Shown piece by piece: positions 1-64,000 of a stretch of DNA of 64,000 bases (the first letter of the stretch is position 1; each line of letters starts with the position of its first letter). Origin of the DNA: Dermatophilaceae bacterium. Its GTDB lineage: Bacteria; Actinomycetota; Actinomycetes; Actinomycetales; Dermatophilaceae. Below the pieces are notes generated by a model. The model was not told the DNA's origin and made no database searches. It saw only the letters and a list, made by a program, of their open reading frames with translations. Location of the stretch: positions 586 through 64,585 of the forward strand of contig JBGAQV010000001.1 of NCBI GenBank assembly GCA_044220505.1, in the 5' to 3' direction. Position numbers and translations under genes: made by a program.

Positions 1-486
1 ATCGGGCTGGATGCCGCCTCGACGAGCCTGGTCTTCGGGATCTCCGGCGCGGCCGACATGCTGCTGTTCTACCCGGCGGGGTGGGCGATGGACCGGTTCG
101 GTCGGGTGCACGTCGCCGTGCCGTCGATGCTCGTCCTCGGGGTCGGGATGGCGCTCATCCCCGTGGCCGGGTCGTTCGCCGGGCTGGTCCTGGTCGGGCT
201 GGTGCTCGGCGTGGGCAATGGCATCGGCTCGGGCATCCTCATGACCCTCGGTGCCGATGCCTCGCCGGAGCAGGGGCGGGCGCAGTTCCTCGGCGGCTGG
301 CGGCTCATGGGCGACCTGGGCTGGGCGGCCGGTCCGGCGTTGGTGAGCCTCGGGGCCGCGGTGCTGTCGCTCGGAGCGGCGGCCGTCATGATGGGCGGCC
401 TGGCGTGGTTGGGCGCGGCCTGGCTGCGGGTGTGGGTGCCCCGTTACGACCCGACCAGGGCTGGTCGGCAGGCCACGGGCCAATAG
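1..486 (+). CDS. MFS-type transporter, C-terminal fragment (5' end outside the window)
   Basis: Frame 1 is open from nt 1 to TAG 484-486. The product is a chain of hydrophobic TM-like segments (LVLGVGMALIPVAGSFAGLVLVGLVLGVGNGIGSG; GPALVSLGAAVLSLGAAAVMMGGLAWLGAAW) with GC3-rich codons. The family call rests on general resemblance only. Confidence 0.55.
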   Translation: MGLDAASTSLVFGISGAADMLLFYPAGWAMDRFGRVHVAVPSMLVLGVGMALIPVAGSFAGLVLVGLVLGVGNGIGSGILMTLGADASPEQGRAQFLGGWRLMGDLGWAAGPALVSLGAAVLSLGAAAVMMGGLAWLGAAWLRVWVPRYDPTRAGRQATGQ

Positions 487-495
487 CACCGAACA

Positions 496-555
496 GATCG
501 CGATCCTGTCACCTGGGTGCGGTCGCAACGCGACCCAAGTGACAGGATCGCGATC
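496..555. terminator. Long hairpin between convergent genes (probable bidirectional terminator)
   Basis: Perfect 17-bp arms GATCGCGATCCTGTCAC (496-512) / GTGACAGGATCGCGATC (539-555), with extra partial pairing inside. It lies between the stop codons at 486 (+) and 573 (-). Confidence 0.55.
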
Positions 556-572
556 TTTCGAGGCCGGCGTCG

Positions 573-1103
573 TCAGCGGCGGCGACCGAGGGTGGCCAGC
601 GCCTCACCATCGGTGCGCCACACCGTCCACTCGTCCTGCGGCACCGCGCCGAGCGACCGATAGAAGCCGTGCGCGGGGGTGTTCCAGTCGAGCACCCACC
701 ACTCGAACCGCGGGTAGCCGCGCTCGACACAGATACCGGCCAACTCCTCCAGCAGCATCCGGCCCAGGCCGAGGCCGCGACGTTCGGGGGTGACGAACAG
801 GTCCTCGAGCCACAGGCCGTGGCGCACCTTCCAGGTCGAGAAGGTGACGTACCAGATCGCGATCCCGGCGACCTCCCAGCCGGCAGCGCCCGCATCGGCC
901 CCCGACTCGTCGCCGACCACGTCGCGCACCTCGGCGACCTGGCAGAAGGCCTGCGGAGCGTCACAGAACAGCGCCGCGGCGAAGTCCTCCGGCCCACCCT
1001 CGACCGCGTCCGGCTCCTTCTCATAGACGGCCAGACCGACCACGAGATCGTGGATGGCCTGGGCGTCGGCGGGCTGGGCGGGACGGATGCGGACCTCGGG
1101 CAT
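573..1103 (-). CDS. GNAT family N-acetyltransferase (diamine/spermidine acetyltransferase-like)
   Basis: 176-aa GC3-rich ORF with the GNAT acetyl-CoA pocket motif LFVTPERRGLGLGRMLLEEL and a C-terminal FYRSLG block. Confidence 0.8.
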   Translation of the reverse strand: MPEVRIRPAQPADAQAIHDLVVGLAVYEKEPDAVEGGPEDFAAALFCDAPQAFCQVAEVRDVVGDESGADAGAAGWEVAGIAIWYVTFSTWKVRHGLWLEDLFVTPERRGLGLGRMLLEELAGICVERGYPRFEWWVLDWNTPAHGFYRSLGAVPQDEWTVWRTDGEALATLGRRR

Positions 1104-1234
1104 AGGTCAGATCCTGCCGTGTCCAGCACGCCAGCGTCTCCCCGGGTCCCCGGAGCAGACGGGGGCCCTCGCGAGATGTCGAATGAGGTCGCTATTCCGG
1201 AGCGATAGCAGCCGATTTCGCGATCTCGAGGTCC

Positions 1235-2611
1235 TCAGGCGGTGCGGGACACGGCATACCGGCGCAGGGCTTCGGCGCGGGCGGCGGCGTGCTCGACGAT
1301 GCGAGTGGGGTAGCCGCCGGCATACCCGGCCGCGTGTGCCCACGGCTCGTGGGCAGCGGCGCCGGCGAGGTGACCCAGTTCCGGCACCCAGCGGCGCACG
1401 TAGTCACCCTGCGGGTCGAACCGCTGCCCTTGCGCGACCGGGTTGAAGATCCGGAAATACGGCGCAGCGTCGGTGCCGGTGCCGGCAACCCATTGCCAGC
1501 CATGGGAATTGGACGCGAGGTCGCCGTCGCACAGCTGCGCCATGAAATGCCGCGCCCCGTGTGGCCACCACACGTGCAGGTGTTTGACCAGGAAGCTCGC
1601 GGTCACCATCCGCACCCGGTTGTGCATCCAGCCGGTCGCCGCGAGCTGCCGCATCCCCGCGTCGACGAAGGGATAGCCGGTCCGCCCCGCGCGCCAGGCG
1701 TCGTACGCGGCGCCCGGCTCGTCGTAGTCCATCCCCGGCAGCGGCCGCAGGTCGTGCCACGCCGAGCGGGGATGGTGCCACAACACGTCGGCATAGAACT
1801 CACGCCAGGCCAGCTCGGTGACGAACGTGCTCGCGCCGGGGGTGCCGCGCGCTTCGTCGCTGCCGAGGTCGGCCAGCAGGGTGCGGGGATGGATCTCGCC
1901 GTATTTCAGGGCCGCCGAGAGCCGCGACGTGCCGTCGAGATCGGGTCGGTCCCGGTCGGTCCGGTATGCCGTAAGGGCGCCCTCCCGGAACTCGTGCCAC
2001 CGCGCGTGCGCGGCGGCCTCTCCGACCTGGCCATCTCCAACCGCACCCGCGCCCGCGGTGCCCGTGCTCGGGAGGTCGTCGCTGGGAACATCTTGGAGGC
2101 CGGTCAGGGCGACAGGAGCGGGTGCCGGCCCGGGCGCACCGTGCGCCCGCCAGGCCCGTGAGAACGGGGTGAAGACCCGGTAGGGGGTGCCGCTGCCGGT
2201 CAGCACGGTGCCCGGACCCACCGCGTATGCCGTGCCCGTCGCCACCCAGGCCACCCCGACGTCGGCCAGCCGGGCAGCGACCGCGGCATCGCGCCGGCGG
2301 CCGTAGGGCGTGCTCTCGGCCGTCACGTGCGCCGCGTCGGTGCCGAGTTCGGCTGCCAGAGCAGGGATCACGCGCAGCGGTGAGCCGCGACGCAGCACCA
2401 GCTGCACGGCATACCGGGCGTGGAGGTCTGCTGCGAAGGAGCGCAGGGAGGCCGCGAGGCGGTCCCGGCGCGGGGACCCGGCCGCGTCCCACAGCAGGGG
2501 ATCGACGACGAAGACCGGCACGACGGGACGGCCCGATGCCGCGGCGCCGAGCAGAGCGGGGTGGTCGGCGATGCGCAGGTCGCGTCGCAACCACACCAGG
2601 ACGGGCTTCAT
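1235..2611 (-). CDS. phr: Deoxyribodipyrimidine photolyase (class I CPD photolyase/cryptochrome family)
   Basis: 458-aa ORF. N-terminal VLVWLRRDLRIADHPAL and C-terminal FAD-binding blocks TGYPFVDAGMRQL, GWMHNRVRM and HGWQWVAGTGTDAAPYFRIFNP. Confidence 0.92.
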   Translation of the reverse strand: MKPVLVWLRRDLRIADHPALLGAAASGRPVVPVFVVDPLLWDAAGSPRRDRLAASLRSFAADLHARYAVQLVLRRGSPLRVIPALAAELGTDAAHVTAESTPYGRRRDAAVAARLADVGVAWVATGTAYAVGPGTVLTGSGTPYRVFTPFSRAWRAHGAPGPAPAPVALTGLQDVPSDDLPSTGTAGAGAVGDGQVGEAAAHARWHEFREGALTAYRTDRDRPDLDGTSRLSAALKYGEIHPRTLLADLGSDEARGTPGASTFVTELAWREFYADVLWHHPRSAWHDLRPLPGMDYDEPGAAYDAWRAGRTGYPFVDAGMRQLAATGWMHNRVRMVTASFLVKHLHVWWPHGARHFMAQLCDGDLASNSHGWQWVAGTGTDAAPYFRIFNPVAQGQRFDPQGDYVRRWVPELGHLAGAAAHEPWAHAAGYAGGYPTRIVEHAAARAEALRRYAVSRTA

Positions 2612-3360: not shown

Positions 3361-3546
3361 GCGCCCGGTTCGCCCTGGTGTATGCCGTGTCGCTCACGTC
3401 GGTTTGTCGGGTATGCCGAGCCTGCGACGAGCACGATTGAGAACGTCGGTGATCTCACAGTGGCCATTCCGTGATCGGAACGTGACATTGCCTCGGGAGA
3501 TGGGCTAGTCTTCCCGACGCCGGTCCAGACATGGCCCGGTGCCGAG

Positions 3547-4941: not shown

Positions 4942-5874
4942 GTGGAGACGGATGCGCTGCGGTGGTTCCAGTTCGTTGCCGATGGGGCGACGGTGACCGA
5001 GGTCGCCGAACTCCACATGGTGAGCCAGCCGAGCGTCTCGCGCGCCCTGGCGGCCCTGCAGGATGAGATCGGCACCCCGCTGCTGACGCGTTCTGGCCGC
5101 GTGCTTCGGCTGACACACGCGGGGTCGGTCTTCAAACGCCACGTCGACCGGCTCATCAACACCCTCGACGATGGGCTGGCGGCGGTCGACCAGTTGCTCG
5201 ACCCCGAGCGGGGGACCGTCGTGCTCGCCCATGACCCGTCGTTGGGCTCCTGGTTGGTGCCGGCACTCATCGGTGGCTTCCGGGCCGAGCACCCCGACGT
5301 GCAGTTCGTCGTCCACCAGACCGGTCAGGAAGGAGTGCTGGCGTCGCCGGACAGCTTGGTCGAGAGTCGGGTGGACCTGGTCATCACGGCGCAGCGGCCG
5401 CACGGCATACCGGTGCAGTGGCGGTTACTCTTCCGCGAGGACCTCTTCCTGGCCGTGCCAGCGCGCCATGCGTGGGCGGGGCGCACCGAGGTGTCGATGG
5501 CGGAGGCGGCGGGGGAGGCGTTCGTCGTGCCGCGCGCGCCGAGCCCGATGCGGCAGCGGTGGGAGCGGCTCGTGGCGGCTGCGGGGATCGAACCGCAGGT
5601 GGCTTTCGAGGTCGACGATCTGACGACCGCGCGGGGGTTCGTCGCGGCCGGGCTGGGGGTTGCTGTGGTGCCTGCGACCGGAGATGACCCGCTGCCGCCC
5701 TCGACCGGCGGGCCGTGGTTGGTGCGCATCACCGACGATGCCGGGGCCCGCGACGTGGGGCTGGTCTGGTCGACCGAGCGCGCTTTGCTCCCCGCAGCTG
5801 GCCTGTTCCGGCGCTATCTGCTCGCGCATGCGCCGCGGCCGCGGGCGTCGAGGAGTGCGAGACTCGGGAGATGA
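4942..5874 (+). CDS. LysR family transcriptional regulator
   Basis: 310-aa ORF with a GTG start. LysR-type HTH LRWFQFVADGATVTEVAELHMVSQPSVSRALAALQDEIGTPLLTRSGRVLRLTHAG, followed by a substrate-binding domain of typical length. Confidence 0.9.
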   Translation: METDALRWFQFVADGATVTEVAELHMVSQPSVSRALAALQDEIGTPLLTRSGRVLRLTHAGSVFKRHVDRLINTLDDGLAAVDQLLDPERGTVVLAHDPSLGSWLVPALIGGFRAEHPDVQFVVHQTGQEGVLASPDSLVESRVDLVITAQRPHGIPVQWRLLFREDLFLAVPARHAWAGRTEVSMAEAAGEAFVVPRAPSPMRQRWERLVAAAGIEPQVAFEVDDLTTARGFVAAGLGVAVVPATGDDPLPPSTGGPWLVRITDDAGARDVGLVWSTERALLPAAGLFRRYLLAHAPRPRASRSARLGR

Positions 5875-6581
5875 GCGATGCCGTGGATGCCGTGGATGCT
5901 GTTGACGCCGTGATTGCGGTGGATGCGCTGGACGTGCAGGTGTGGGCTGACCTGGTCTGCCCGTGGTGCTACATCGCGCAGCGGCGGCTCGCGGCGGCGG
6001 TGGCTGGGTATGCCGGGCCGGTGGCGGTGCGGCATCGGGCCTACGAACTCGACCCTGGTATGCCGTCCGGCGAGCGGGTGCCGGTGGCCGAGTACCTCGG
6101 TCGCAAGTACGGCGGCGGGTGCGCCGCAGGGCTGGCCATGACCGAGCGGGTGGCCGCGGTTGCTGCCGAGGACGGGCTGGTCCTGGACTTCGCCCAGGCC
6201 GTGAAGTCGTCGACCTTCGATGCACACCGGCTCTTGGCGCTGGCCGCTGCCGAGGGTGCTGGGCAGCTGGCCGGGGAGTTGCAGGAGGCGATGTATGCCG
6301 CACACTTCCGGCAGGGCCTGGCGCTGGACGATCACGGTGTGCTGATGGACCTTGCCACAGGTGTGGGCCTGTCTCGCAACCGAATTGGCAAGGTCCTTGG
6401 CTCGGATGCGTTCGCCGCGCAGGTGCGTGCCGACCAGGCCGAGGCGCGCTCGATCGGCGTGACCGGCGTGCCGTTCACCGTGGCCGGGGGACGCGTGGCG
6501 GTTTCTGGTGCTCAACCCGTCGAGGTCTTCGCCGCGTTGTTGACCCAAGCTGCCGATGCGTCGGGGCCGCCCGATCGCTGA
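5871..6581 (+). CDS. DsbA family oxidoreductase (FrnE-like thioredoxin fold)
   Basis: ATG 5871 overlaps the LysR stop (ATGA). CPWC active site in VWADLVCPWCYIAQRRL, and a C-terminal GVTGVPFTV block typical of DsbA/FrnE proteins. The earlier part of ORF 5715.. overlaps lysR out of frame. Confidence 0.8.
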   Translation: MSDAVDAVDAVDAVIAVDALDVQVWADLVCPWCYIAQRRLAAAVAGYAGPVAVRHRAYELDPGMPSGERVPVAEYLGRKYGGGCAAGLAMTERVAAVAAEDGLVLDFAQAVKSSTFDAHRLLALAAAEGAGQLAGELQEAMYAAHFRQGLALDDHGVLMDLATGVGLSRNRIGKVLGSDAFAAQVRADQAEARSIGVTGVPFTVAGGRVAVSGAQPVEVFAALLTQAADASGPPDR

Positions 6582-9078: not shown

Positions 9079-9765
9079 ATGACGCATCCCGAGGCTCCCG
9101 GCGCGACCACCCACGCCGCGATGGACGAGGCCGGTATGCCGTGCACCGCCCCTTCCGCGGACGGCGACGACGTGGTGCTGCTCGATGAGGGCGGTAACCC
9201 CATCGGTGCCGCCGACCGCCGCGCCGTGCACACCGACCGGACGCCGCTGCACCTGGCCTTCTCGACCTACCTTTTCGACGCCGATGACCGGCTGTTGCTC
9301 ACCCAGCGCGCCCACGACAAGGTGACCTGGCCGAGCGTCTGGACCAACTCGTGCTGCGGCCACCCGCGGCCGGGTGAAGACCCGAGGGAGGCGGCCAGCC
9401 GACGCATCCGCGAAGAGCTCGGCCTGCACGTCGACGCTGGCGAGTTGCGCTGTGTCGCACCGGATTTCAGGTATCGGGCGATCGACGCCCACGGCGTGGT
9501 CGAGCACGAGATGTGCCCGGTCTATGTCGCGCAGATCGACGGCAGCGCGCAGGATCCGCGCCGCGCCGACCCCGACGAGATCGCAGACTCGCGCTGGGTG
9601 CCCTGGCGCGAGGTCCTCGACCGGGCGACGAACGACCCAGCCAGCCTCAGTCCGTGGGCCGTGCTGCAGATCCCCCTCGTGGCCGCGGCTTGTCCACCCC
9701 TCAGCGAGCCCGAGGACGGCGGCGATTGCGTTGCCGAGGTGAGTGGCGCCGAGGGCAGCGGATGA
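9079..9765 (+). CDS. idi: Isopentenyl-diphosphate delta-isomerase, type 1 (Nudix fold)
   Basis: Lies inside ORF 8860... Homology begins after ATG 9079. Blocks LHLAFSTYLF, WPSVWTNSCCGHPRPGE (catalytic Cys) and HEMCPVY. Confidence 0.85.
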   Translation: MTHPEAPGATTHAAMDEAGMPCTAPSADGDDVVLLDEGGNPIGAADRRAVHTDRTPLHLAFSTYLFDADDRLLLTQRAHDKVTWPSVWTNSCCGHPRPGEDPREAASRRIREELGLHVDAGELRCVAPDFRYRAIDAHGVVEHEMCPVYVAQIDGSAQDPRRADPDEIADSRWVPWREVLDRATNDPASLSPWAVLQIPLVAAACPPLSEPEDGGDCVAEVSGAEGSG

Positions 9766-10904
9766 CCGACCTCGCCCCCGCCCCGCAGGTGCGCCGACCG
9801 CTCACCGACGCACAATCGGCCGTCGACGCCGCCCTGGCCGACGTCGTGACCGATCTCGGCCGACGGTGGCGTGCCCTCGCTCCTGACGGCTCGGGCGGGC
9901 CGGCCGACTCAGCCGGCGACGAACCCACCCCAAGCCTCACCGCCGACGACGTCCTGGGCTATCTCGTCGACTTCCTCGCGCGACCGGGCAAGCGCATTCG
10001 GCCGCAGATGTGTTTCTGGGGCTGGGCCTCGGTGCACGGCACCGACGCGGATCCGGCCACCAACGGGTATGCCGACATGGTCACCGCTGGTGCGGCTCTG
10101 GAACTCCTGCACGTCCTCGGGCTGGTCCACGACGATGTCATGGACGAGTCGGACCAGCGCCGGGGGCGGCCGACCGTGCACCGCCGCGCCGCGGCCGATC
10201 ACCGCAGCCACCGTGCCGACGGCGACCCCGACCGATATGGCGAGAGCATCGCCGTGCTCGTGGGCGACCTCGCCCACACCGAAGCCGTCCGCCTGGCGAT
10301 GACCCTCCCGCCGCCCATGCGCGAGGTCTGGAACACGCTGTCCCTCGAGTTGATGATCGGCCAGGCCACCGACCTCGCCGGAGCCGCGGGGCGTCGCCGC
10401 GACCTGGTCCACGCCCGCGCTATCGCCCGCACCAAATCCGGCGCCTACACCGTTGTCCGTCCCCTCGACCTGGGCGCGACCGCCGCCGGCGCTGACCCGC
10501 TCGTCCGCCAGGGGCTGGCCTGCTATGGACACCACGTCGGCGAGGCGTTCGCGCTGCGTGACGACCTGCTCGGTGCTTTCGGCAACATGAGCTCGACCGG
10601 CAAGCCGGTCGGCGACGACCTGGTCGCGGGCAAACCGACCGTGCTGCTCGCCCTCGCCGCCCAGACCGGCGACCCGGCGGTCCACGGCGCCCTGGCGCGC
10701 ATCGAGAACCGCTCGGTCACCACGGACGACGTGCCCGAGATCCAGGCCACCCTCGCCGCGGCGGGCATCCCCGACCGCGCCGAAGCGCTTATCGCCGACG
10801 CCACCGCCGCCGCGCTGCTCGCACTCGACACAGCGCCCATCCACCCCGACGCCCGCGAAGGCCTGGCCGACCTGGCCCGCTCGATCGCCTGGAGGACCGC
10901 GTGA
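9762..10904 (+). CDS. crtE: Geranylgeranyl diphosphate synthase (polyprenyl synthetase family)
   Basis: ATG 9762 overlaps the idi stop (ATGA). First Asp-rich motif LVHDDVMDESDQRRG and second motif GEAFALRDDLLG. Confidence 0.85.
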   Translation: MTDLAPAPQVRRPLTDAQSAVDAALADVVTDLGRRWRALAPDGSGGPADSAGDEPTPSLTADDVLGYLVDFLARPGKRIRPQMCFWGWASVHGTDADPATNGYADMVTAGAALELLHVLGLVHDDVMDESDQRRGRPTVHRRAAADHRSHRADGDPDRYGESIAVLVGDLAHTEAVRLAMTLPPPMREVWNTLSLELMIGQATDLAGAAGRRRDLVHARAIARTKSGAYTVVRPLDLGATAAGADPLVRQGLACYGHHVGEAFALRDDLLGAFGNMSSTGKPVGDDLVAGKPTVLLALAAQTGDPAVHGALARIENRSVTTDDVPEIQATLAAAGIPDRAEALIADATAAALLALDTAPIHPDAREGLADLARSIAWRTA

Positions 10905-12421: not shown

Positions 12422-13350
12422 CCGCCCCACCCAGCGCGCTCGCGCTGCAGCAGCCGTATGCCGTGTGCGCCCGGATCACCCGGGAGCACGGCACGACCTA
12501 CTTCTGGGGCGTGCAGTTGCTGCCCCGAGAGAGTCGCCGGCATGTCCACGCGATCTACGCCCTGTGCCGGGTGGCGGACGACATCGTCGATGCCGCGGGG
12601 GCCACGACGGCACGCGTCGAGCAGACCCGCGACGAGCTGCACGCCTTCCGCGACCGTTTCGACCGGGCCGTCGAGCAGGCCCGGTCCGGCCACGTCGAGC
12701 CGCCCGTCCAGGGCGCTCCGGCCGCCGCCCGCGAGGCCGCTGTGCTGGCCGCCGCTGCCGCCACCACTGTCGAGCTGGGTCTCACGACCGAGCCCTTCGA
12801 CCGCTTCTTCGGGGCCATGGCCATGGACCTCGACACGACGCACTACGCGACCTGGGCCGACCTCTGCGGCTACATGGAGGGCTCGGCCGCCGTCATCGGA
12901 GAACTCATGCTGCCGGTGCTCAGACCGCGCTCCGACGCGGCCTTCGAGCCGGCGCGCGCACTCGGCCTGGCCTTCCAGCTCACCAACTTCCTGCGCGACG
13001 TCGCTGAGGACCTCGACCGGGGCAGGGTCTACCTCCCGCAGGACGATCTCGCGCGGTTCGGGGCCGACCCCGCCCGCCGCGTCGCCGACCAGCAGTGGCG
13101 CGAGGCTCTCGCCTTCCAGATCGAGCGCAACCGGCAGCTGTATGCCGTGGCCGACACCGGCATCCCCCACTTGCCGCCCCGATCGGCCAGGTGCGTCGCC
13201 ACCGCCCGGCGACTGTATTCGGGGATCCTGGACCGCATCGAGGCGGCGGACTACGACGTCTTCTCGGCGCGCGCCCGGGTGCCCACCTGGCGCAAGGCCG
13301 CGACGGCCGCGGCGGTCTTCGTGACGGGAGCAGGGACAACTCAGCGATGA
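12418..13350 (+). CDS. crtB: Phytoene synthase
   Basis: GTG 12418 overlaps the crtI stop. Squalene/phytoene synthase blocks YFWGVQLLPRESRRHVHAIYALCRVADDIVD and GLAFQLTNFLRDVAEDLDRGRVYLP. Confidence 0.9.
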   Translation: MTAPPSALALQQPYAVCARITREHGTTYFWGVQLLPRESRRHVHAIYALCRVADDIVDAAGATTARVEQTRDELHAFRDRFDRAVEQARSGHVEPPVQGAPAAAREAAVLAAAAATTVELGLTTEPFDRFFGAMAMDLDTTHYATWADLCGYMEGSAAVIGELMLPVLRPRSDAAFEPARALGLAFQLTNFLRDVAEDLDRGRVYLPQDDLARFGADPARRVADQQWREALAFQIERNRQLYAVADTGIPHLPPRSARCVATARRLYSGILDRIEAADYDVFSARARVPTWRKAATAAAVFVTGAGTTQR

Positions 13351-37052: not shown

Positions 37053-37057
37053 ACGGG

Positions 37058-54018: not shown

Positions 54019-55502
54019 CTCGGCCGAGCACCGTCATCGACATTGGCCTCGACCTCGGCACGACGGCGAGCAAGGCGGTCGCCCTCGACGGTGCTGGATG
54101 TGTGGTCGGCTCCGCCTCGCTGCCCACTCAGTGGCGAGCACCGCACCCCGAGTGGGCCGAGCGCGAGGCGGACGCAGTCGACACACTCGTGGGCCGTCTG
54201 CTGGGCGAGGTGCTCGTCGCCGCGGAGCGCTCGGTGGCGGTCACGGCCGTGCGCTCGATCGGCGTTACCGGGATGGCGGAGTCCGGGACCGTGCTGGACC
54301 GAGACGGTGTCGCGAGAGCGCCGATGATCGCGTGGTACGACCCGCGAGGCCGAGACGAAATCACCTCTCTTCCCGACGATTTCGGGGCGTTGTTTCCGGG
54401 CCGGACCGGCTTGCCGATGACCCCGCTGGCGACACTGTTCAAGCTGCGCTGGCTGCAGCAGCACGGCCTCGATCTCGCTGGGCTGCAATGGCTTTCGCTG
54501 CCCGAGTATGTCTGTCATCGGCTCGGTGGTCGTCGCGCTGCCGAGCGCTCGATGCTCGGCCGCACCGGCCTGCTCGACATCCACACCGGCGAGCTCCTTC
54601 CGGAGGCGCTGCACGTGCTGCGGGCCGACCCGGCTCTGGTGCCGTCGCAGGTGCCAGCAGGCACCTCCGTGGGCACCCTCGGCACCGGTGCGTTCGGGCT
54701 CGACGACCGGTATGCCGGTGCGGTCCTCACCGTTGCCGGTCACGACCACCTCGTGGCGGCGGCTGCCGCCGATGCTGCGCACGCAGGCACCGTCTTCGAC
54801 TCCATGGGCACCGCCGAGGCGTTCGTGTGCGCCACACCGACCTTGCCCAGCCCTGAGAGTGTCGCGGCGCTGGTGGCCCTCGGCGTAGGCACCTACTCGC
54901 ATGTGGTGAGCAACACCACCGCGCTCATCGCGGGGATGCGCACGGGGCTGGTCCTCAAGCGGGTTCTCGCGATCGCAGGGCTGGACAATGACGAGGGCCG
55001 CCGCAGCGTCGACACCGTCCGACTCGTGGGCCAGGCAGCTGGCGGCCCGGAAGGTATAGGCCCGGAAGGTATCGGCCCGGAAGGTGCCGGCCCGGCAGCG
55101 GGGATCAGGGTGCACGGCTACGAGATGGCTGGGGCACCGGTGTCCATCGTCATCGACGACGACGAGGTCACGCCACAGGATCTCTGGGCCGCCGCGCTCC
55201 ACTCGGTCACCACGGGCGCGCGGGGGCTTGTCGACGGCATACGGAGTCAAGGCGTCGAGATCACCGACCTCGTGGTCGCCGGGGGCTGGACCCGGATGGC
55301 GTCGGTTCTGGCCACCCGGGGTGCGCTGGCCGCCACCGTCCGGCAAGCCCATGACCCCCAGCCCGGCCTGATCGGAGCTGCCTTGATGGGCCGGTGGGCC
55401 AGCGGCGTTGACTCCGCGGCCGGCATACCCCCCCATGACAGTCCACCCGCGGACTGGTTCGCGCAGTGGTCACCGGACCCCCACCAACAGGAGAAACCGT
55501 GA
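54015..55502 (+). CDS. FGGY family carbohydrate kinase
   Basis: ATG 54015 overlaps the lacI stop (ATGA). N-terminal VIDIGLDLGTTASKAVAL, internal VAGHDHLVAAA and FDSMGTAEAF, and C-terminal VVAGGWTR. Confidence 0.85.
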   Translation: MTRPSTVIDIGLDLGTTASKAVALDGAGCVVGSASLPTQWRAPHPEWAEREADAVDTLVGRLLGEVLVAAERSVAVTAVRSIGVTGMAESGTVLDRDGVARAPMIAWYDPRGRDEITSLPDDFGALFPGRTGLPMTPLATLFKLRWLQQHGLDLAGLQWLSLPEYVCHRLGGRRAAERSMLGRTGLLDIHTGELLPEALHVLRADPALVPSQVPAGTSVGTLGTGAFGLDDRYAGAVLTVAGHDHLVAAAAADAAHAGTVFDSMGTAEAFVCATPTLPSPESVAALVALGVGTYSHVVSNTTALIAGMRTGLVLKRVLAIAGLDNDEGRRSVDTVRLVGQAAGGPEGIGPEGIGPEGAGPAAGIRVHGYEMAGAPVSIVIDDDEVTPQDLWAAALHSVTTGARGLVDGIRSQGVEITDLVVAGGWTRMASVLATRGALAATVRQAHDPQPGLIGAALMGRWASGVDSAAGIPPHDSPPADWFAQWSPDPHQQEKP

Positions 55503-56404: not shown

Positions 56405-57168
56405 AACCGGTCCTGGAGGCGCGGGGGCTGAGCCGGAGTTTCGGTTCGGTCCGCGCTCTCGACGCCTGCGACTTCGATGTGTATGCCGGTGAGGTCGTCG
56501 CGCTCATCGGCGACAACGGTGCCGGGAAGTCGACGCTCGTCAAGGCGATGACCGGCAACCTCGACGTCGACGCGGGCAGCCTGCTGCTCGACGGAGAGCC
56601 GGTGGCCTTCAAGAGCCCACAGGACGCCTCCGCGGTCGGCATCGAAGTCGTGCACCAGGACTTGGCGCTCGCGCCACACCTCAACCCAGCCCAGAACATG
56701 TTCCTGGGGCGCGAAATCATGGCCAAGGGCCTCCTCGGCAAACTCGGCTTCATGGACCGGGCGGCGATGATGCGCCGTTCGGCGGAATCCTTCGCCGACC
56801 TCGGGTCTGCGGTGCGGTCTCTCGTGACCCCGGTCGGGTCGATGTCTGGTGGCCAGAAGCAGAGCGTGGCGATCGCCCGGTCGGTGGCCTGGGCCAACCG
56901 GGTGCTCTTCCTCGATGAGCCGACGGCCGCCCTCGGGGTGGTCCAGACCGCCAACGTGCTCGACATGATCCGTCGGGTGCGCAATTCCGGCGTGGCGGTC
57001 GTCTTGATCAGCCACTCGATGCCACACGTCCTCGAGGTCGCCGACCGCGTGCAGGTACTGCGCCTGGGCCGGCGAGTGGCGACTCTCCCAGCCGCCGGTG
57101 CCACGGTCGAGCAACTCGTCGGCGCCATGACCGGTGCGCTGGACACCAAGAGCGGAGCCTCCTCATGA
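56401..57168 (+). CDS. Sugar ABC transporter ATP-binding protein (single NBD)
   Basis: ATG 56401 overlaps the upstream stop. Walker A GDNGAGKST, signature MSGGQKQ and Walker B VLFLDEPT. Confidence 0.9.
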   Translation: MKPVLEARGLSRSFGSVRALDACDFDVYAGEVVALIGDNGAGKSTLVKAMTGNLDVDAGSLLLDGEPVAFKSPQDASAVGIEVVHQDLALAPHLNPAQNMFLGREIMAKGLLGKLGFMDRAAMMRRSAESFADLGSAVRSLVTPVGSMSGGQKQSVAIARSVAWANRVLFLDEPTAALGVVQTANVLDMIRRVRNSGVAVVLISHSMPHVLEVADRVQVLRLGRRVATLPAAGATVEQLVGAMTGALDTKSGASS

Positions 57169-59331: not shown

Positions 59332-60108
59332 TCAGAGCCAGCCGACCCGGCCGTGCAACACGGCATACCCGAGGAAGGCCACCACGTCGATGAGGGTGTG
59401 CGCGAGGACCAGGGGACCCACCCGCCGGGTGCGCCGCCACACCAGGGCAAAGACGACCCCCATCACGACATTGCCGACGAAGCCGCCGAACCCCTGGTAG
59501 AGGTGATATGCACCGCGCAGCAGCGCGGACGCCGCCACAGCCCAGCGCCACGTCCATCCCGCCTGCTCGAGCCGGGCCAGCAGATAGCCGACCACGAGGA
59601 CCTCTTCGAGCAGGCCGTTCTGCAGCGCAGACAGGATGAGCACCGGGACGGCCCACCAGGTCTGGCCGAGGTTGGCGGCCGCGACCTGAGTGTTGACCCC
59701 CAGGGCGCGAGCGGCGAGATACAACCCCAGGCCGGGGATGCCGATGGCGGCGGCGAGCAGGGTCCCTCGCCCGAGGTCTCGCCACGGGCTGCTGCTGTCC
59801 AGCCCGAGGCCCCGCAGCGCGGATCGTATGCCGGGTGGTCCAGGCGGCACGGACGTCGCCAGCAGGTGCAGGGCCAGGGCCACGGGCACCACGGCCAGCG
59901 CGATGCCGACAAGTTGATAGGTGAGGTCCAGCCACGGCCGGTCGGGCGTGACGCTCGTGTTGAGGGCCGAGGTCTGTGCCGAAAGGGGCACCTCGCGGGT
60001 GAGGCGCTCGACGATCCGCAGCAGCGACCAGATCGCCGACGCCCCGAGCGACAGGCCCATGACGATGACGACCTCGCGGTGCAGCACCCGGCGCTCGATC
60101 ACGGCCAC
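59332..60108 (-). CDS. CPBP family intramembrane glutamic endopeptidase (CAAX protease/Abi fold)
   Basis: 258 aa with a GTG start. Motif 1 LLEEVLVVGYL, then HLYQG ... N and H..ID motifs (LAHTLIDVVAF). Confidence 0.8.
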   Translation of the reverse strand: MAVIERRVLHREVVIVMGLSLGASAIWSLLRIVERLTREVPLSAQTSALNTSVTPDRPWLDLTYQLVGIALAVVPVALALHLLATSVPPGPPGIRSALRGLGLDSSSPWRDLGRGTLLAAAIGIPGLGLYLAARALGVNTQVAAANLGQTWWAVPVLILSALQNGLLEEVLVVGYLLARLEQAGWTWRWAVAASALLRGAYHLYQGFGGFVGNVVMGVVFALVWRRTRRVGPLVLAHTLIDVVAFLGYAVLHGRVGWL

Positions 60109-60795: not shown

Positions 60796-61424
60796 ACCGG
60801 CCCCGCGAGGTGCACCGGTTCCACGGCCAGATCGCCGGTGTCGGATCTGCGAGCGGCGTTCGCATCGTCGTCGGCCGATGGCCGCACTCTCCGTTCGGGC
60901 CGTTCGCCGATGCCATGGTCGAACGCCCGGACGGGCGCCGTTTCCTCCTCGCCCCGTCCGATCAGGTCGCCGAGTTCGTCTCGCGCACCTATGAATTCGA
61001 CGAGGTGCGGATCGAGCCGTTCGCCGTGGAGGTTACCGGCGCCGGCTCCGGCGCGACCTGGGAGATCGCGTCGCCGTCGCTGTCGGCCCGGCTGGAGGCG
61101 GGCCCCCGTATGCCGTTGGGTCACCTCCTGCGCTCGGTGCCCAGCCCGCTCGCGACCAGTCCGACCTGGGCGGGCCTGATCGATCCGGTTGCCCGAGTCG
61201 TCATGCGCGGAGTGCGCACCCGAGGCATCGCTGTCGACGGACGCCGCGAGAGCTACGGCGCAACGGACCTCCGTCGCGTCGTGGCGCTGGAAGGGACCTT
61301 CGACGGCATACCCCTCGGGGCGCTCGCGCTCGTCGACCCGCCGTGTCGCTTCGGGTTCTCTTCAACTCCCCGGACCCCGTCGCTGACCAGCGTCACCACC
61401 ACCGTTGAGATCCTGTCCGCTTGA
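60792..61424 (+). CDS. Hypothetical protein
   Basis: 210-aa GC3-rich ORF. TTG 60792 overlaps the upstream stop (GTG 60810 is an alternative start). No family recognised. Confidence 0.45.
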   Translation: MNRPREVHRFHGQIAGVGSASGVRIVVGRWPHSPFGPFADAMVERPDGRRFLLAPSDQVAEFVSRTYEFDEVRIEPFAVEVTGAGSGATWEIASPSLSARLEAGPRMPLGHLLRSVPSPLATSPTWAGLIDPVARVVMRGVRTRGIAVDGRRESYGATDLRRVVALEGTFDGIPLGALALVDPPCRFGFSSTPRTPSLTSVTTTVEILSA

Positions 61425-61463: not shown

Positions 61464-62312
61464 ATGACCGGCATGACCGCTGCCGGAGTGCTCGTGCTCG
61501 CGGCGACGCCCATCGGCGACTCCCGCGACGCCGCCCCCCGCCTGGCCGACGAGTTGCTCGCCGCAGACGTCATCGCGGCCGAGGACACCCGGCGGTTGCG
61601 CCGGCTCACCAGCGCGCTCGGCGTCGAGCCGGCCGCCCGGATCCGCAGCTACCACGAACACAACGAAGCGACCCAGACTGCTGAACTCCTCGGGCTGTTG
61701 CGCGACGGCGCGCGCGTCGTGCTCGTCACCGATGCCGGTATGCCGTCGGTGTCCGACCCGGGCTACCGCCTGGTCGCTGCGGCGGTAGCAGCCGACATCC
61801 GGGTGACGGCCGTCCCCGGACCGAGCGCGGTGCTCATGGCGCTGGCCGTCAGCGGCCTTCCGGTCGACCGGTTCTGTTTCGAGGGGTTCCTGCCCCGCAA
61901 GGCGGGGGACCGGGCTCGGGTGGCGGCCGGCCTGTCCACCGAACCGCGCACCATGGTCTTCTTCGAGGCGCCGCACCGCCTGGCCGAGTCCCTGGGGACG
62001 CTCGCCGAGGCCTTCGGGCCCTACCGCCCCGCCGCCGTATGCCGTGAACTCACCAAGACCTACGAAGAGGTCCGCCGCGGGGGGCTGGCGCAGTTGGCGC
62101 ACTGGGCGGCCGGGGGAGTCAAGGGCGAGATCACCATCGTCGTCGCCGGGGCGCCAGCAGGTCAGCCCGTCGCGCTGGATGAGGTGGTCACCGGCATACG
62201 GGCGCGAGTTGCAGCCGGCGAGCGGCTCAAGGACGTGTGCGCGGCCGAAGCTGCGCGCACCGGCCTGTCCCGCAAGGCGTTATACGACGCCGTGGTGGCT
62301 CAGCGGCGCTGA
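61464..62312 (+). CDS. rsmI: 16S rRNA (cytidine1402-2'-O)-methyltransferase
   Basis: Blocks LVLAATPIGDSRDAAPR, IAAEDTR, LVTDAGMPSVSDPG and VPGPSAVLMALAVSGLP of the tetrapyrrole-methylase-fold RsmI family. Confidence 0.9.
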   Translation: MTGMTAAGVLVLAATPIGDSRDAAPRLADELLAADVIAAEDTRRLRRLTSALGVEPAARIRSYHEHNEATQTAELLGLLRDGARVVLVTDAGMPSVSDPGYRLVAAAVAADIRVTAVPGPSAVLMALAVSGLPVDRFCFEGFLPRKAGDRARVAAGLSTEPRTMVFFEAPHRLAESLGTLAEAFGPYRPAAVCRELTKTYEEVRRGGLAQLAHWAAGGVKGEITIVVAGAPAGQPVALDEVVTGIRARVAAGERLKDVCAAEAARTGLSRKALYDAVVAQRR

Positions 62313-62363
62313 CCGAGCCGCTCGGCCGCATCGCCGGTCGGCGGCCGAACTGCCGACCTCGGC

Positions 62364-62840
62364 TCAGCGGTGGTGCTGGCCTTCGGCAGAACGCTTGAGC
62401 GCGGCGAGGGTCTGCCGGATGCCGCTGCGGTTGTGCGAGCGGCGGTCGCCGAGGATGCGCTCGGAGATGGCCCGCGAGGCCGCCCCTCGCCGGTCGGTCC
62501 ACTCCTCGGCCACGGTGCATCCCGAGCCGTCGTCGTCGGGGACGATGAAGTATTCCCAATGCGAGATCGCTGCGGGCCCGATGAAGACGTCGAAGGCCAG
62601 GTGGCGACCCTTCTCGGCGGCCGTGATCGCGCCGAAGGTGATCCAGCGCAGCGTCCCGCGGCGGTTGTAGCCGATGAAGTGAGCGCCCTTCACGGCTTCG
62701 GTGGCACCACCGCGCCAGCTCACCCGCTCGCACTCGGGTGACCATTCGCCCATCCGGGTGAGATCCGAGATGAGGTCGTAGACCAGGGGTGCGGGCGCGT
62801 CGATGTGGGTCGTGTCGCGCAGATCGGCCATGCCCCCCAT
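62364..62840 (-). CDS. SRPBCC family protein (polyketide cyclase/dehydrase-like)
   Basis: Start at the ATG at 62840 or 62831. Block THIDAPAPLVYDLISDLTRMGEWSPEC, typical of SRPBCC ligand-binding domains. Confidence 0.7.
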   Translation of the reverse strand: MGGMADLRDTTHIDAPAPLVYDLISDLTRMGEWSPECERVSWRGGATEAVKGAHFIGYNRRGTLRWITFGAITAAEKGRHLAFDVFIGPAAISHWEYFIVPDDDGSGCTVAEEWTDRRGAASRAISERILGDRRSHNRSGIRQTLAALKRSAEGQHHR

Positions 62841-62892
62841 CCTGGCCCCTCGCTCCTGCCGATGGTGCCTTGGGGGTGGTTTGCTTGACCAC

Positions 62893-63402
62893 GTGACCGA
62901 ATCCGAGCCCGTTGCGCACCGATTGCGGCCGCCGACGCATCGAGTGTCCCCGCGTGCCCGGTGGCTGTGGCTCGTCGAGGGGGTGGGCTCGCTGCTGCCC
63001 CTCATCGCCGCTCAGGCGATCTGGTGGTGGCGCGATCCGGCTTCGCCTCGGCCGGTGCAGTGGTGGCTGGTGGCGGCCACGGTGGTGCTCGGCACGGCAT
63101 ACCTGGCTGTCATGCCGCAGTGGCGCTACCGGGTGCATCGCTGGGAGGTGACCCCGGAGGCGGTCTACACCCAGACCGGATGGTTCAACCAGGAGCGGCG
63201 GATCGCGCCGATCGTGCGAATCCAGACCGTCGACCTCACCCGCGGGCCGGTGTCCCAGCTGCTGAGCCTGGCGTCGGTGCGGGTGACGACCGCGTCCTCG
63301 GCGGGACCGTTGGGGATCCACGGCCTCGACCACGACCTGGCCGTGAGCCTCGTCGAGCAGCTCACCGAGCTCACCGTGTCCGACTCCGGGGATGCCACGT
63401 GA
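62893..63402 (+). CDS. Bacterial PH domain (bPH_2/YdbS-like) membrane protein
   Basis: GTG 62893. Two TM segments, then PQWRYRVHRWEVTPEAVYTQTGWFNQERRIAPIVRIQTVDLTRGPVSQLLSLASVRVTTAS. Confidence 0.65.
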   Translation: MTESEPVAHRLRPPTHRVSPRARWLWLVEGVGSLLPLIAAQAIWWWRDPASPRPVQWWLVAATVVLGTAYLAVMPQWRYRVHRWEVTPEAVYTQTGWFNQERRIAPIVRIQTVDLTRGPVSQLLSLASVRVTTASSAGPLGIHGLDHDLAVSLVEQLTELTVSDSGDAT

Positions 63403-63433
63403 GTCTCCTCGGGCGACAGGGCGGGCGGCGACG

Positions 63434-64000
63434 GTGAGCGATCCCGGATTCCGCCGACTGGATGCCCGGATGCTGCTCGTGCACCCGGTGCAGGAGGCGG
63501 TGCGCTTCCTGCCGGCTCTGCTGGCGGTCTTCGTGACCGGCCGCTCCTCCGACCGCAGTCCATGGTGGGACGTCGCCGCTCTGATCGCCGTCGTGGCCCT
63601 CGGTGTTTCGCGATGGTTCACGACCCGGTATCGGATCACCGGCGGCCAGATCGAGTTGCGCCACGGCCTGCTCAACCGCAAGCTGCTGGCGACTCCGGCC
63701 GACCGATTGCGGACGGTCGACGTGACGGCGCCGATCTGGCACCGACTGCTCGGGCTGGCGCGCGTCGAGATCGGCACCGCCTCGGGCACGCTGAGCGAGC
63801 GCATCGTGCTCGACGCACTGGCGGCACCGGTCGCCCACGCGTTGCGGGCGGAGTTGCTGCACGACAAGGAGATCCGGGCAGGCGACGCCGGACCTGGCGA
63901 TCCCGAAATGGCGTCAGTCGGGCCAGTGTCGGAAACCGTTCTCCTGCAATTGGATCCACGCTGGGTGCGCTACGCCCCGCTCACCACGAGCGGCCTGCTC
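63434..64000 (+). CDS. Bacterial PH domain (YdbT-like) membrane protein, 5' part (3' end outside the window)
   Basis: My own translation from GTG 63434 stays open to the window end: VSDPGFRRLDARMLLVHPVQEAVRFLPALLAVFVTG ... RYRITGGQIELRHGLLNRKLLATPADRLRTVDVTAPIWHRLLGLARVEIGTAS. Confidence 0.6.
   Translation, partial: MSDPGFRRLDARMLLVHPVQEAVRFLPALLAVFVTGRSSDRSPWWDVAALIAVVALGVSRWFTTRYRITGGQIELRHGLLNRKLLATPADRLRTVDVTAPIWHRLLGLARVEIGTASGTLSERIVLDALAAPVAHALRAELLHDKEIRAGDAGPGDPEMASVGPVSETVLLQLDPRWVRYAPLTTSGLL

Follow-up and report, generated by a model that had tools for sequence, protein, structure and literature searches.

A near-saturating, clade-restricted eight-base word in the DNA of a wastewater Dermatophilaceae bacterium

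The 64,000 nt of DNA considered here, referred to throughout as the window, come from an actinobacterium of wastewater sludge in the family Dermatophilaceae and carry a short word, GTATGCCG, together with its reverse complement, CGGCATAC, at unusual density. Gene calling with a self-trained codon model yields 64 genes that cover 92% of the window, and the base composition is A 0.148, T 0.150, G 0.352 and C 0.350 (70% G+C). A programmatic count gives 49 copies of GTATGCCG and 39 of CGGCATAC, 88 in all and so more than one for every gene, which agrees exactly with the 49 and 39 of an initial annotation of this DNA and recovers every start position listed there. Despite its three A/T bases, the word is the top-ranked 8-mer of the window, above every pure G+C word. 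Wholly within coding sequence (CDS) lie 77 of the 88 copies (87.5%). Each copy is given below with the strand of the word, its location and, for copies inside genes, the codons in the sense of the gene with their translation.

1252..1259 (-), CDS 1235-2611(-), CGG-TAT-GCC-GTG, RYAV
1318..1325 (-), CDS 1235-2611(-), GGG-TAT-GCC-GGC, GYAG
1964..1971 (+), CDS 1235-2611(-), ACG-GCA-TAC-CGG, TAYR
2225..2232 (+), CDS 1235-2611(-), ACG-GCA-TAC-GCG, TAYA
2407..2414 (-), CDS 1235-2611(-), CGG-TAT-GCC-GTG, RYAV
3380..3387 (+), intergenic
3411..3418 (+), intergenic
5403..5410 (-), CDS 4942-5874(+), CAC-GGC-ATA-CCG, HGIP
6008..6015 (+), CDS 5871-6581(+), GGG-TAT-GCC-GGG, GYAG
6058..6065 (+), CDS 5871-6581(+), GGT-ATG-CCG-TCC, GMPS
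6293..6300 (+), CDS 5871-6581(+), ATG-TAT-GCC-GCA, MYAA
9053..9060 (-), intergenic
9134..9141 (+), CDS 9079-9765(+), GGT-ATG-CCG-TGC, GMPC
10067..10074 (+), CDS 9762-10904(+), GGG-TAT-GCC-GAC, GYAD
11208..11215 (-), CDS 10901-12421(+), CCG-GCA-TAC-CTG, PAYL
11530..11537 (+), CDS 10901-12421(+), ATG-TAT-GCC-GGT, MYAG; kept in all Dermatophilaceae-like relatives
11626..11633 (+), CDS 10901-12421(+), ATG-TAT-GCC-GTG, MYAV; made by Gly->Tyr and Ile->Val in the window clade
11799..11806 (-), CDS 10901-12421(+), ACG-GCA-TAC-CGG, TAYR; made with Val->Thr in the window clade
12456..12463 (+), CDS 12418-13350(+), CCG-TAT-GCC-GTG, PYAV
13140..13147 (+), CDS 12418-13350(+), CTG-TAT-GCC-GTG, LYAV
13753..13760 (-), CDS 13347-14387(+), CCG-GCA-TAC-GAC, PAYD
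14321..14328 (+), CDS 13347-14387(+), CGG-TAT-GCC-GTG, RYAV
14570..14577 (-), CDS 14380-14781(+), CCG-GCA-TAC-ACG, PAYT
15611..15618 (-), CDS 15112-16773(+), ACG-GCA-TAC-GAC, TAYD
16682..16689 (+), CDS 15112-16773(+), GGT-ATG-CCG-TGG, GMPW
17124..17131 (-), CDS 16775-17491(+), GCG-GCA-TAC-CTG, AAYL
18028..18035 (-), intergenic
18659..18666 (+), CDS 18132-22241(+), GTG-TAT-GCC-GCG, VYAA
19336..19343 (-), CDS 18132-22241(+), ACG-GCA-TAC-CAG, TAYQ
19523..19530 (+), CDS 18132-22241(+), TGG-TAT-GCC-GCC, WYAA
20406..20413 (-), CDS 18132-22241(+), CGG-CAT-ACC, RHT
20579..20586 (+), CDS 18132-22241(+), CCG-TAT-GCC-GTC, PYAV
21677..21684 (+), CDS 18132-22241(+), CGG-TAT-GCC-GCT, RYAA
24001..24008 (-), CDS 23636-24514(-), CCG-TAT-GCC-GTG, PYAV
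24536..24543 (+), CDS 24511-24975(-), CGG-CAT-ACC, RHT
25979..25986 (+), CDS 25145-26758(-), GCG-GCA-TAC-CTC, AAYL
26020..26027 (-), CDS 25145-26758(-), GGG-TAT-GCC-GTG, GYAV
26479..26486 (+), CDS 25145-26758(-), AAC-GGC-ATA-CGG, NGIR
26774..26781 (-), intergenic
28164..28171 (+), CDS 26863-29418(+), CGG-TAT-GCC-GTG, RYAV
29611..29618 (+), CDS 29477-30100(-), GAC-GGC-ATA-CCG, DGIP
29895..29902 (-), CDS 29477-30100(-), GTA-TGC-CGG, VCR
30545..30552 (+), CDS 30234-31628(+), CGG-TAT-GCC-GTC, RYAV
32301..32308 (-), CDS 31625-32887(+), ACG-GCA-TAC-CGG, TAYR
33295..33302 (-), CDS 32887-33372(+), CGG-CAT-ACC, RHT
33500..33507 (+), CDS 33414-33908(+), GGG-TAT-GCC-GTC, GYAV
33671..33678 (-), CDS 33414-33908(+), CCC-GGC-ATA-CCG, PGIP
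34029..34036 (-), CDS 33905-34531(+), ACG-GCA-TAC-CTG, TAYL
34799..34806 (+), CDS 34611-35807(+), CAG-TAT-GCC-GTG, QYAV
35175..35182 (-), CDS 34611-35807(+), CGG-CAT-ACC, RHT
36951..36958 (+), CDS 35841-37052(-), ACG-GCA-TAC-CTG, TAYL
37047..37054 (-), overlaps the start of CDS 35841-37052(-); ATG of the word is the start codon
37498..37505 (-), CDS 37058-38095(-), GAG-TAT-GCC-GGC, EYAG
38270..38277 (+), intergenic
40475..40482 (+), CDS 40376-41272(-), ACG-GCA-TAC-TGG, TAYW
42144..42151 (+), CDS 41455-42384(+), CTG-TAT-GCC-GTG, LYAV
42868..42875 (-), CDS 42384-43640(+), ACG-GCA-TAC-AGT, TAYS
43112..43119 (+), CDS 42384-43640(+), GAG-TAT-GCC-GGT, EYAG
43553..43560 (+), CDS 42384-43640(+), CCG-TAT-GCC-GTC, PYAV; inverted pair with 43566
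43566..43573 (-), CDS 42384-43640(+), CGG-CAT-ACC, RHT; inverted pair with 43553
44965..44972 (+), CDS 44917-46083(-), CCG-GCA-TAC-TCC, PAYS
45089..45096 (+), CDS 44917-46083(-), CGG-CAT-ACC, RHT
45354..45361 (-), CDS 44917-46083(-), CCG-TAT-GCC-GGT, PYAG
46405..46412 (-), CDS 46124-47815(-), GGG-TAT-GCC-GGT, GYAG
46849..46856 (+), CDS 46124-47815(-), GAC-GGC-ATA-CCG, DGIP
47892..47899 (-), intergenic; inverted pair with 47916
47916..47923 (+), overlaps the start of CDS 47918-48865(+); ATG of the word is the start codon
48901..48908 (+), intergenic; opens unit 1 of a 52-bp tandem duplication
48953..48960 (+), intergenic; opens unit 2 of the 52-bp tandem duplication
50086..50093 (+), CDS 49073-50296(-), CGC-GGC-ATA-CCT, RGIP
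50385..50392 (+), CDS 50293-50829(-), GAC-GGC-ATA-CCC, DGIP
52163..52170 (+), CDS 52043-53008(+), GTA-TGC-CGT, VCR
52470..52477 (-), CDS 52043-53008(+), ACG-GCA-TAC-GCC, TAYA
52708..52715 (+), CDS 52043-53008(+), AGG-TAT-GCC-GTG, RYAV
53437..53444 (-), CDS 53005-54018(+), CGG-CAT-ACC, RHT
53489..53496 (-), CDS 53005-54018(+), GCG-GCA-TAC-ACG, AAYT
54710..54717 (+), CDS 54015-55502(+), CGG-TAT-GCC-GGT, RYAG
55235..55242 (-), CDS 54015-55502(+), GAC-GGC-ATA-CGG, DGIR
55421..55428 (-), CDS 54015-55502(+), GCC-GGC-ATA-CCC, AGIP
56481..56488 (+), CDS 56401-57168(+), GTG-TAT-GCC-GGT, VYAG
59361..59368 (-), CDS 59332-60108(-), GGG-TAT-GCC-GTG, GYAV
59826..59833 (+), CDS 59332-60108(-), CCC-GGC-ATA-CGA, PGIR
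61108..61115 (+), CDS 60792-61424(+), CGT-ATG-CCG-TTG, RMPL
61304..61311 (-), CDS 60792-61424(+), GAC-GGC-ATA-CCC, DGIP
61738..61745 (+), CDS 61464-62312(+), GGT-ATG-CCG-TCG, GMPS
62037..62044 (+), CDS 61464-62312(+), GTA-TGC-CGT, VCR
62192..62199 (-), CDS 61464-62312(+), ACC-GGC-ATA-CGG, TGIR
63095..63102 (-), CDS 62944-63402(+), ACG-GCA-TAC-CTG, TAYL

All six reading frames are used by the word. The full phase tally of the 88 copies comprises 31 that read x-TAT-GCC-G (Tyr-Ala), 19 GCA-TAC (Ala-Tyr), 12 GGC-ATA-C (Gly-Ile), seven CGG-CAT-ACC (Arg-His-Thr), five GGT/CGT-ATG-CCG (Met-Pro) and three GTA-TGC-CGN (Val-Cys-Arg), as well as nine intergenic copies and two whose ATG serves as a start codon. 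Of the copies in CDS, 39 are sense and 38 antisense. As sense and antisense are equal and all six frames are used, the word is neither an mRNA nor a peptide signal, and the intergenic copies rule out a peptide or RNA motif as well. The flanks are biased independently of frame, with C at -3 in 61% of copies, G at -1 in 62%, T at +8 in 57% and G at +9 in 49%, which bears out the flank bias first described and gives C-N-G-GTATGCCG-T-G as the motif with weak flank preferences in the window genus. These preferences belong to the DNA motif because they recur across frames and between genes. Conservation around the copies fades beyond about 3 bases on each side, and the copies align to relatives by substitution, without indels; the word is therefore free-standing and not part of a longer repeat. 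A dispersed repeat of the repetitive extragenic palindrome (REP) or miniature inverted-repeat transposable element (MITE) type is ruled out by the unconserved flanks, the lack of indels and the in-frame copies in CDS. GTATGCCG is thus a lineage-specific signal of double-stranded DNA and belongs neither to peptide or RNA motifs nor to mobile elements.

The two genes that start inside the word (GT-ATG-CCG, Met-Pro) encode an AI-2E-family transporter, 35841-37052(-), and a cation-efflux protein, 47918-48865(+). In a divergent promoter region, the start copy at 47916 and the one at 47892 form an inverted pair. Between convergent genes at 48901-49004, a 52-bp unit, GTATGCCGNCAAACCTTCCGACTCGCCGGTAAACCTGGGCCGGGCAGGGTAG, is duplicated in tandem and the word opens each unit. 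The coordinate offsets of the Joint Genome Institute (JGI) contig Ga0556162_0000872 imply 104 extra bases, perhaps two more units, between window positions 48095 and 51464, so the copy number of this unit may vary between assemblies.

Orientation is balanced, with 49:39 in the window and 17:18 in the flanks outside it, and, as originally stated, has no link to gene strand. Cumulative GC skew stays within about +/-0.13 across the window, and a Chi-like polarity of 75% on a single replichore would predict about 66:22. These figures bear on the idea that the word is a Chi-like signal of 'self', attenuating a helicase-nuclease such as RecBCD or AdnAB and stimulating recombinational repair. Such a role would suit an over-represented, clade-specific 8-mer of core genes that occurs only at chance number in a phage of a related host, but Chi is polar with replication, known Chi sites are far exceeded in both density and fold-excess, and Chi function does not need synonymous opportunities to be saturated. 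A Chi-like role is accordingly regarded as very improbable.

The abundance of the word was compared with several null models. Markov models of orders 0-3 predict 1.3-3.8 copies in the window (23-66x excess); higher orders saturate and are uninformative because the sub-words are almost confined to the full word, which contains 61% of all GTAT, 91% of GTATG and 95% of GTATGC occurrences. When synonymous codons are shuffled with proteins and pooled codon usage kept, 4.7 +/- 2.1 copies are expected in CDS (maximum 12 in 500 shuffles), and a stricter shuffle that also keeps all dinucleotide counts gives 6.5 +/- 2.4 (maximum 15 in 500); the 77 observed correspond to a 12-16x excess and a z-score of about 30. 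Both shuffles are conservative because the rare codons of the word itself remain in the pool. The excess reported at the outset hence survives a codon-aware null. The initial annotation was right that about 10% of copies are intergenic but not that intergenic DNA lacks enrichment, since nine copies fall in 5.2 kb where 0.2 are expected (about 45x) and the density there is 1.72/kb, against 1.31/kb in CDS. Sequence of the same contig beyond the window holds 19 copies in 8.3 kb and 16 in 8.8 kb (35 in 17 kb), and overall density in the window genus is 1.4-2.3 copies/kb. Other metagenome contigs of the source organism are 99.7-100% identical, and population data are for this reason uninformative on strain polymorphism.

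An artefact or by-product (adapter sequence, bases systematically miscalled at methylated sites, bias in codons or dinucleotides, or a favored peptide) might be suspected, given that the Illumina P7 adapter CAAGCAGAAGACGGCATACGAGAT contains the word and that two relatives discussed below, L001 and L002, are metagenome-assembled genomes (MAGs) from long reads. Adapter contamination is ruled out, as no 12-base adapter extension occurs in the window. Base-calling error in long reads is ruled out by the same sequence in independent short-read assemblies and by the word in isolate genomes, and it is also contradicted by multi-base, amino-acid-changing differences from relatives. Codon or dinucleotide bias is ruled out by both shuffles. 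The chance that the word is of this origin is negligible.

Sites at which the word could stand are nearly filled. A compatible context is defined as a place where the protein sequence permits the word through synonymous codons alone. The window has 114 such contexts and the word is present in 77 (68%), with occupancies of 79% for Tyr-Ala, 73% for Ala-Tyr, 88% for Arg-His-Thr and 43% (12/28) for Gly-Ile. The last requires ATA, a codon used only 8 times elsewhere among about 700 Ile codons. Recruitment of rare codons, inferred originally from a partial phasing, is evident from the fact that 12 of the 20 ATA and 31 of the 111 TAT codons of the window lie inside the word. The synonymous neighbors are correspondingly empty: GTACGCCG has no occurrence in the window and flanks where 9 are expected in CDS, GTATGCGG has none against 3.1 expected and CTATGCCG one against 4.1. 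Across 81 kb of genome (the window with L208 and L210), GTACGCCG/CGGCGTAC, the ordinary spelling of G-Tyr-Ala-G, is never found, and in the Nocardioides locus L008 GTACGCCG ranks near the head of the over-represented 8-mers (9 copies in 21 kb). Ordinary TAC-GCC does exist in the window, as had been pointed out, but it persists only where a flanking base breaks the word.

Pressure for the word extends to the proteins themselves. In amino-acid-shuffled proteins, 57 +/- 7.6 compatible peptide contexts are found, compared with the 114 observed, and the word has reshaped proteins to give an about twofold excess of compatible peptides. The proposal that a DNA-level word is fitted in wherever the protein tolerates it therefore holds for the level of selection but understates the effect, as proteins were also altered (CrtI Gly->Tyr, Val->Thr and Phe->Tyr).

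Conservation was assessed by a three-way alignment with L001 and L002, MAGs from a Danish treatment plant that are 93% and 82% identical, respectively, over aligned DNA. Copies are intact at 32 of 33 sites in L001 and 21 of 22 in L002, where other 8-mers are fully conserved in 59% and 36% of cases. In a codon alignment of crtI, all Dermatophilaceae-like genomes read GTATGCCG at the 11530 site, where nearly all outgroups read GTACGCCG. Gains in the window genus include GGM-G-A-I-P -> GGM-Y-A-V-P, in which GGC became TAT by a three-base change, LP-V-AY-E -> LP-T-AY-R and R-F -> R-Y, each requiring amino-acid replacement at positions conserved elsewhere. The commonest route to the word is GTACGCCG -> GTATGCCG, a CpG-to-TpG transition. 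Because copies are kept in L001 and L002 and gains are seen in CrtI, the word is both protected and actively created across the timescale of a bacterial family.

Two explanations that act on each site separately draw on these observations. In one, modeled on the highly iterated palindrome HIP1 of cyanobacteria, a methyltransferase, maybe with a repair partner, would recognize the asymmetric word and a repair bias would fix or restore each site independently, or else the methylated sites would themselves be under selection. Site-by-site saturation, emptied synonymous neighbors, Poisson-like spacing without short-range repulsion and the CpG-to-TpG route are in keeping with this idea; fold-excess and cross-species conservation match those of HIP1 (Xu et al., PMC5861425), and Elhai's ratchet model for HIP1 offers a precedent. 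The word is, on the other hand, not palindromic, and its palindromic relatives are not enriched (GTATACCG 0 copies; GCATGCCG 6 against 7.4 expected). Vsr-type T:G repair could drive one or two positions, but all eight are driven, including the change from GGC to TAT, and neither gene content nor Pfam lists link a methyltransferase to the word in the window. To our knowledge, Actinobacteria lack methyl-directed mismatch repair of the MutS/MutL/MutH type; they use NucS instead. Repair bias and selection on methylated sites, taken jointly, are considered unlikely.

In the other, the copies would form an array of binding sites for an abundant chromosomal protein under selection at each site, either a nucleoid or condensation factor or a translocase of the FtsK/SpoIIIE/TraB type, and a specific protein that binds the CGGTATGCCGTG duplex would be expected. 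The asymmetric 8-bp core matches in size the words that the gamma domains of FtsK, SpoIIIE and TraB recognize, the sites are strongly conserved in L001 and L002, and the TA-rich center is conspicuous in 70% G+C DNA, with 15% of the TA dinucleotides of the window inside the word. A role in nucleoid structure has been proposed for HIP1 (PMC5861425). The sites at which selection would nonetheless have to outweigh that on codons number in the hundreds to thousands and include pairs separated by only 13-50 bp, and a per-site benefit large enough to do so at thousands of them is hard to imagine. The near-complete filling of available contexts would be left to explain, and the array has neither the polarity of the FtsK-orienting polar sequences (KOPS) and SpoIIIE recognition sequences (SRS) nor regular spacing. 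An array of this kind is rather improbable.

The distribution of the word among relatives was determined by scanning species-representative genomes with the CrtI protein of the window, which returned 80 loci. Density is 1.6-1.8 copies/kb in L001 and L002, 0.4-0.9/kb in three Arsenicicoccus species and about 0.4/kb in Lapillicoccus and three uncultured relatives. Within this set, the loci of Nocardioides, Aeromicrobium, Propionibacteriaceae, Acidimicrobiia and Mycobacteriales have essentially no copies. The word heads the over-representation ranking in L001, L002 and four of the six larger carrier loci; L004, L007 and the three Arsenicicoccus species are also counted among the genomes in which it ranks first. 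Occupancy was compared with the same gene caller and context test throughout and is given below with compatible contexts per kb of CDS.

Window: occupancy 68%, 1.94 contexts/kb CDS
L001: occupancy 72%, 2.16 contexts/kb CDS
L002: occupancy 77%, 2.35 contexts/kb CDS
Arsenicicoccus (3 species): occupancy 18-46%, 1.75-1.93 contexts/kb CDS
Soil MAGs L004 and L007: occupancy 35%, 1.26 contexts/kb CDS
Nocardioides: occupancy 0/114, 1.14 contexts/kb CDS
Propionibacteriaceae: occupancy 3/109, 1.10 contexts/kb CDS
Aeromicrobium: occupancy 1/27, 1.28 contexts/kb CDS

The trait is clade-restricted and graded: the window genus shows it strongly, Arsenicicoccus and further Dermatophilaceae-like genomes to an intermediate degree, and outgroups at 0-4% occupancy. 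The density of contexts (1.9-2.35/kb of CDS, against 1.1-1.3 in outgroups) provides an independent phylogenetic confirmation of protein reshaping. The 8-base core is identical across all carrier lineages, and the preferred flanks are lineage-specific dialects: C-N-G before and T-G after the word in the window genus, G-C-C/T before and A/G after it in Arsenicicoccus.

A different word was encountered in Micropruina. In loci L015, L016, L035, L037, L040 and L061, CGGACGCCG is the commonest 9-mer, with 83 copies in 108 kb, and CGGACGCC is about 4x over Markov-3 expectation in L016. CGGACGCCG is G+C-rich and overlaps the GAC-GCC words that top the counts in Nocardioides; it might be another lineage word, of Propionibacteriaceae, or generic Asp-Ala (GAC-GCC) coding at high G+C.

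Several stretches of the window are free of the word. One is an AbiEi/AbiEii islet (genes 6777-7334 and 7423-8184) that adjoins tRNA-Arg(CCT), 8330-8403(-); the segment 6557-8330 is present in L001 and replaced by unrelated DNA in L002, and it looks like a tRNA-linked variable islet. Another, in the region 38379-40258, is a hipBA module, in which a helix-turn-helix gene (38784-39047) is followed by HipA and which adjoins tRNA-Ala(CGC), 38379-38454(+). Public gene calls for identical contigs split hipA into overlapping Couple_hipA and HipA_C, and the gene may be frameshifted. The tRNA linkage and the replacement of the AbiE stretch in L002 fit recent acquisition. The AbiE and HipA genes offer three compatible contexts, all empty (0/3), and in genes with G+C at third codon positions (GC3) below 0.81 the 3 copies seen do not differ significantly from the roughly 5.6 expected. 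The caution that such gaps do not by themselves identify foreign DNA was justified, as gaps of this length are expected by chance; what can be added is that two of the word-free islets abut tRNA genes and that one is replaced in L002. Tetrasphaera phage TJE1 (locus L207, NC_019930; 49 kb, 57.7% G+C), a lytic phage whose host belongs to Dermatophilaceae, has 2 copies, a chance number, along with 4 copies of GTACGCCG and three annotated methyltransferases. Viral contigs scanned for paired words gave matches that are mostly low-G+C tandem repeats and carry no information on the word.

Some neighboring features of the window merit mention. The intergenic copies at 3380 and 3411 lie just upstream of a cyclic di-AMP (c-di-AMP) riboswitch (Rfam RF00379, 61.9 bits) at 3543-3727, itself directly upstream of an NlpC/P60 cell-wall hydrolase gene at 3730-4494. 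A DUF4011-type helicase gene (18132-22241, 1369 aa) with six copies of the word is conserved in L001 and looks resident; it matches the C-terminal part of the NCBIfam anti-phage ProA/Hhe models, at 404/225 bits against cut-offs of 1500/2000. A light-protection region is suggested by a photolyase gene (1235-2611) together with a nearby carotenoid cluster (9079-17491), which comprises idi (NUDIX-type), crtI and crtB along with genes for a polyprenyl synthase, a Rieske protein, two small membrane proteins resembling lycopene cyclases, an HpnE-like desaturase and a methyltransferase.

A word that operates in the DNA itself, builds up directionally to the point of nearly filling its contexts, reshapes proteins, is maintained and is restricted to one clade invites comparison with the uptake signal sequences (USS) of Pasteurellaceae and the DNA uptake sequences (DUS) of Neisseriaceae. 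By analogy with these, the word may be a transmission-bias signal that promotes preferential uptake or transfer followed by recombination, a plausible account that is put at somewhat under an even chance. Some sequence-specific part of the machinery for DNA import, or for transfer between cells, would favor word-bearing fragments, which would replace their homologues by recombination, so that word-bearing alleles would be over-transmitted. Near-matches would therefore become perfect matches where protein function allows, at synonymous sites first and then by tolerated replacements, and density would climb until balanced by codon and protein selection. Uptake or transfer is ranked first because transmission bias explains the saturation and because the parallels with USS and DUS are close. 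Natural transformation is documented in the actinobacterium Micrococcus luteus, via Flp/Tad pili with comEA and comEC (PMC6370729).

A number of observations weigh against uptake or transfer. One-mismatch variants of the word are not enriched as a class (42 observed, 67 expected), and one-off USS are common in Haemophilus. Spacing between copies is indistinguishable from random (coefficient of variation, CV, 0.89 against 0.985 +/- 0.10; p about 0.15), which leaves a regular arrangement unsupported and differs from the even spacing of USS and DUS; no clustering is seen in the window, and with 11 spacings below 100 bp against 11.4 expected, close copies do not repel one another. Within 64 kb, islands are not significantly depleted and gaps are no longer than chance, the longest being 2880 bp compared with a mean longest of 3635 bp under random placement. 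The share of copies in CDS, 87.5%, exceeds the 34.5-65% given for USS and DUS. The word has no association with terminators or inverted-repeat pairs: the two inverted pairs equal the chance number, and no terminator-like hairpin was found at the 3'-intergenic copies checked in the window, whereas about half of USS and DUS copies lie in terminators (bioRxiv 10.1101/2025.10.24.684340). No competence or receptor gene is recognizable in the gene content of the window. Random spacing fits an independent per-site process at least as well as a bias on whole fragments and, with the absent terminator link and the unenriched one-off variants, favors such a process. One form of it would be a dedicated conversion system, a 'genomic word writer', in which an 8-bp-specific binding, nicking or modifying activity coupled to repair operates without uptake and would perfect near-matches wherever they stand in the resident DNA. 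Near-saturation, emptied one-off neighbors, Poisson-like spacing and the driving of all eight positions form the basis for this idea, which would have no characterized counterpart and is doubtful.

Words that are hyper-abundant and maintained by drive are known in few lineages, and the function of HIP1 is debated after 30 years. A survey from 2025 takes DNA uptake enhancing sequences to be DUS, from Neisseriaceae, and USS, from Pasteurellaceae (bioRxiv 10.1101/2025.10.24.684340). In keeping with the statement that no function was described for the word in Actinobacteria, a full-text literature search with incomplete coverage, subscription journals being largely outside it, found no earlier report of this or any uptake- or HIP-type word there. 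The word would be a third, unrelated example, in Actinomycetota. If uptake or transfer is correct, it would be the first candidate signal of this kind in a Gram-positive lineage of high G+C and would imply sequence-selective gene exchange in Dermatophilaceae, the family to which the main phosphate accumulators of wastewater plants belong. As an asymmetric, graded word (occupancy 18-77%) present in culturable Arsenicicoccus, it offers an independent system in which drive, repair-ratchet and structural explanations can be separated, and it shows the extent to which pressure at the DNA level overrides codon usage and amino-acid conservation. In practice, the word is useful as a sharp marker for binning these genomes and for spotting foreign DNA in them. 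Since P7 matches of 8 bases occur more than once per kb, short-overlap adapter trimmers could clip genuine reads of these organisms.

Among known systems, REP and MITE elements are the most readily set apart, as they consist of a longer conserved block or hairpin and are mostly intergenic, and the word has no such unit. The initial annotation drew analogies with USS, DUS, HIP1 and Chi, and the kind of signal it had in mind is supported. Chi is the poorest of these fits because the word has no orientation polarity: both are over-represented, asymmetric and taxon-specific words of 5-8 bp, but Chi is polar, much sparser and only few-fold over-represented, while the word is unpolarized and 12-40x over expectation. 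KOPS, SRS and the TraB recognition sequences (TRS) share an asymmetric core of exactly 8 bp, and the existence of TraB-type conjugation of double-stranded DNA in actinomycetes makes a transfer signal conceivable. KOPS and SRS, however, show strong polarity and are roughly tenfold rarer, TRS are clustered at the clt loci of plasmids, and none of the three is known to saturate CDS. HIP1 (GCGATCGC) is likewise an octamer, mostly genic, spread by substitution, conserved and lineage-wide at variable density, with a debated function (methylation, repair ratchet, nucleoid structure or transformation), and the fold-excess of the word falls within the 15- to 300-fold over-representation reported for it, with conserved sites (Xu et al., PMC5861425). 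It differs in being palindromic and in holding known orphan methyltransferase sites, where the present word is asymmetric and is not known to have a methyltransferase, and its periodicity is on a scale of 10-90 kb, to be set beside a window of 64 kb. USS and DUS are unrelated in sequence and belong to another phylum than Actinomycetota. Their density, from published counts and genome sizes, is about 0.3-0.8/kb. With them the word shares a short non-palindromic core with weaker flanks, occurrence on both strands without polarity at roughly one copy/kb, a family-wide range with lineage dialects, preferred frames in coding sequence and absence from recently acquired DNA and from a phage. It also shares an about twofold excess of encoded peptides, in line with the tripeptides specified by uptake sequences, which are about doubled according to Findlay & Redfield (PMC2817400).

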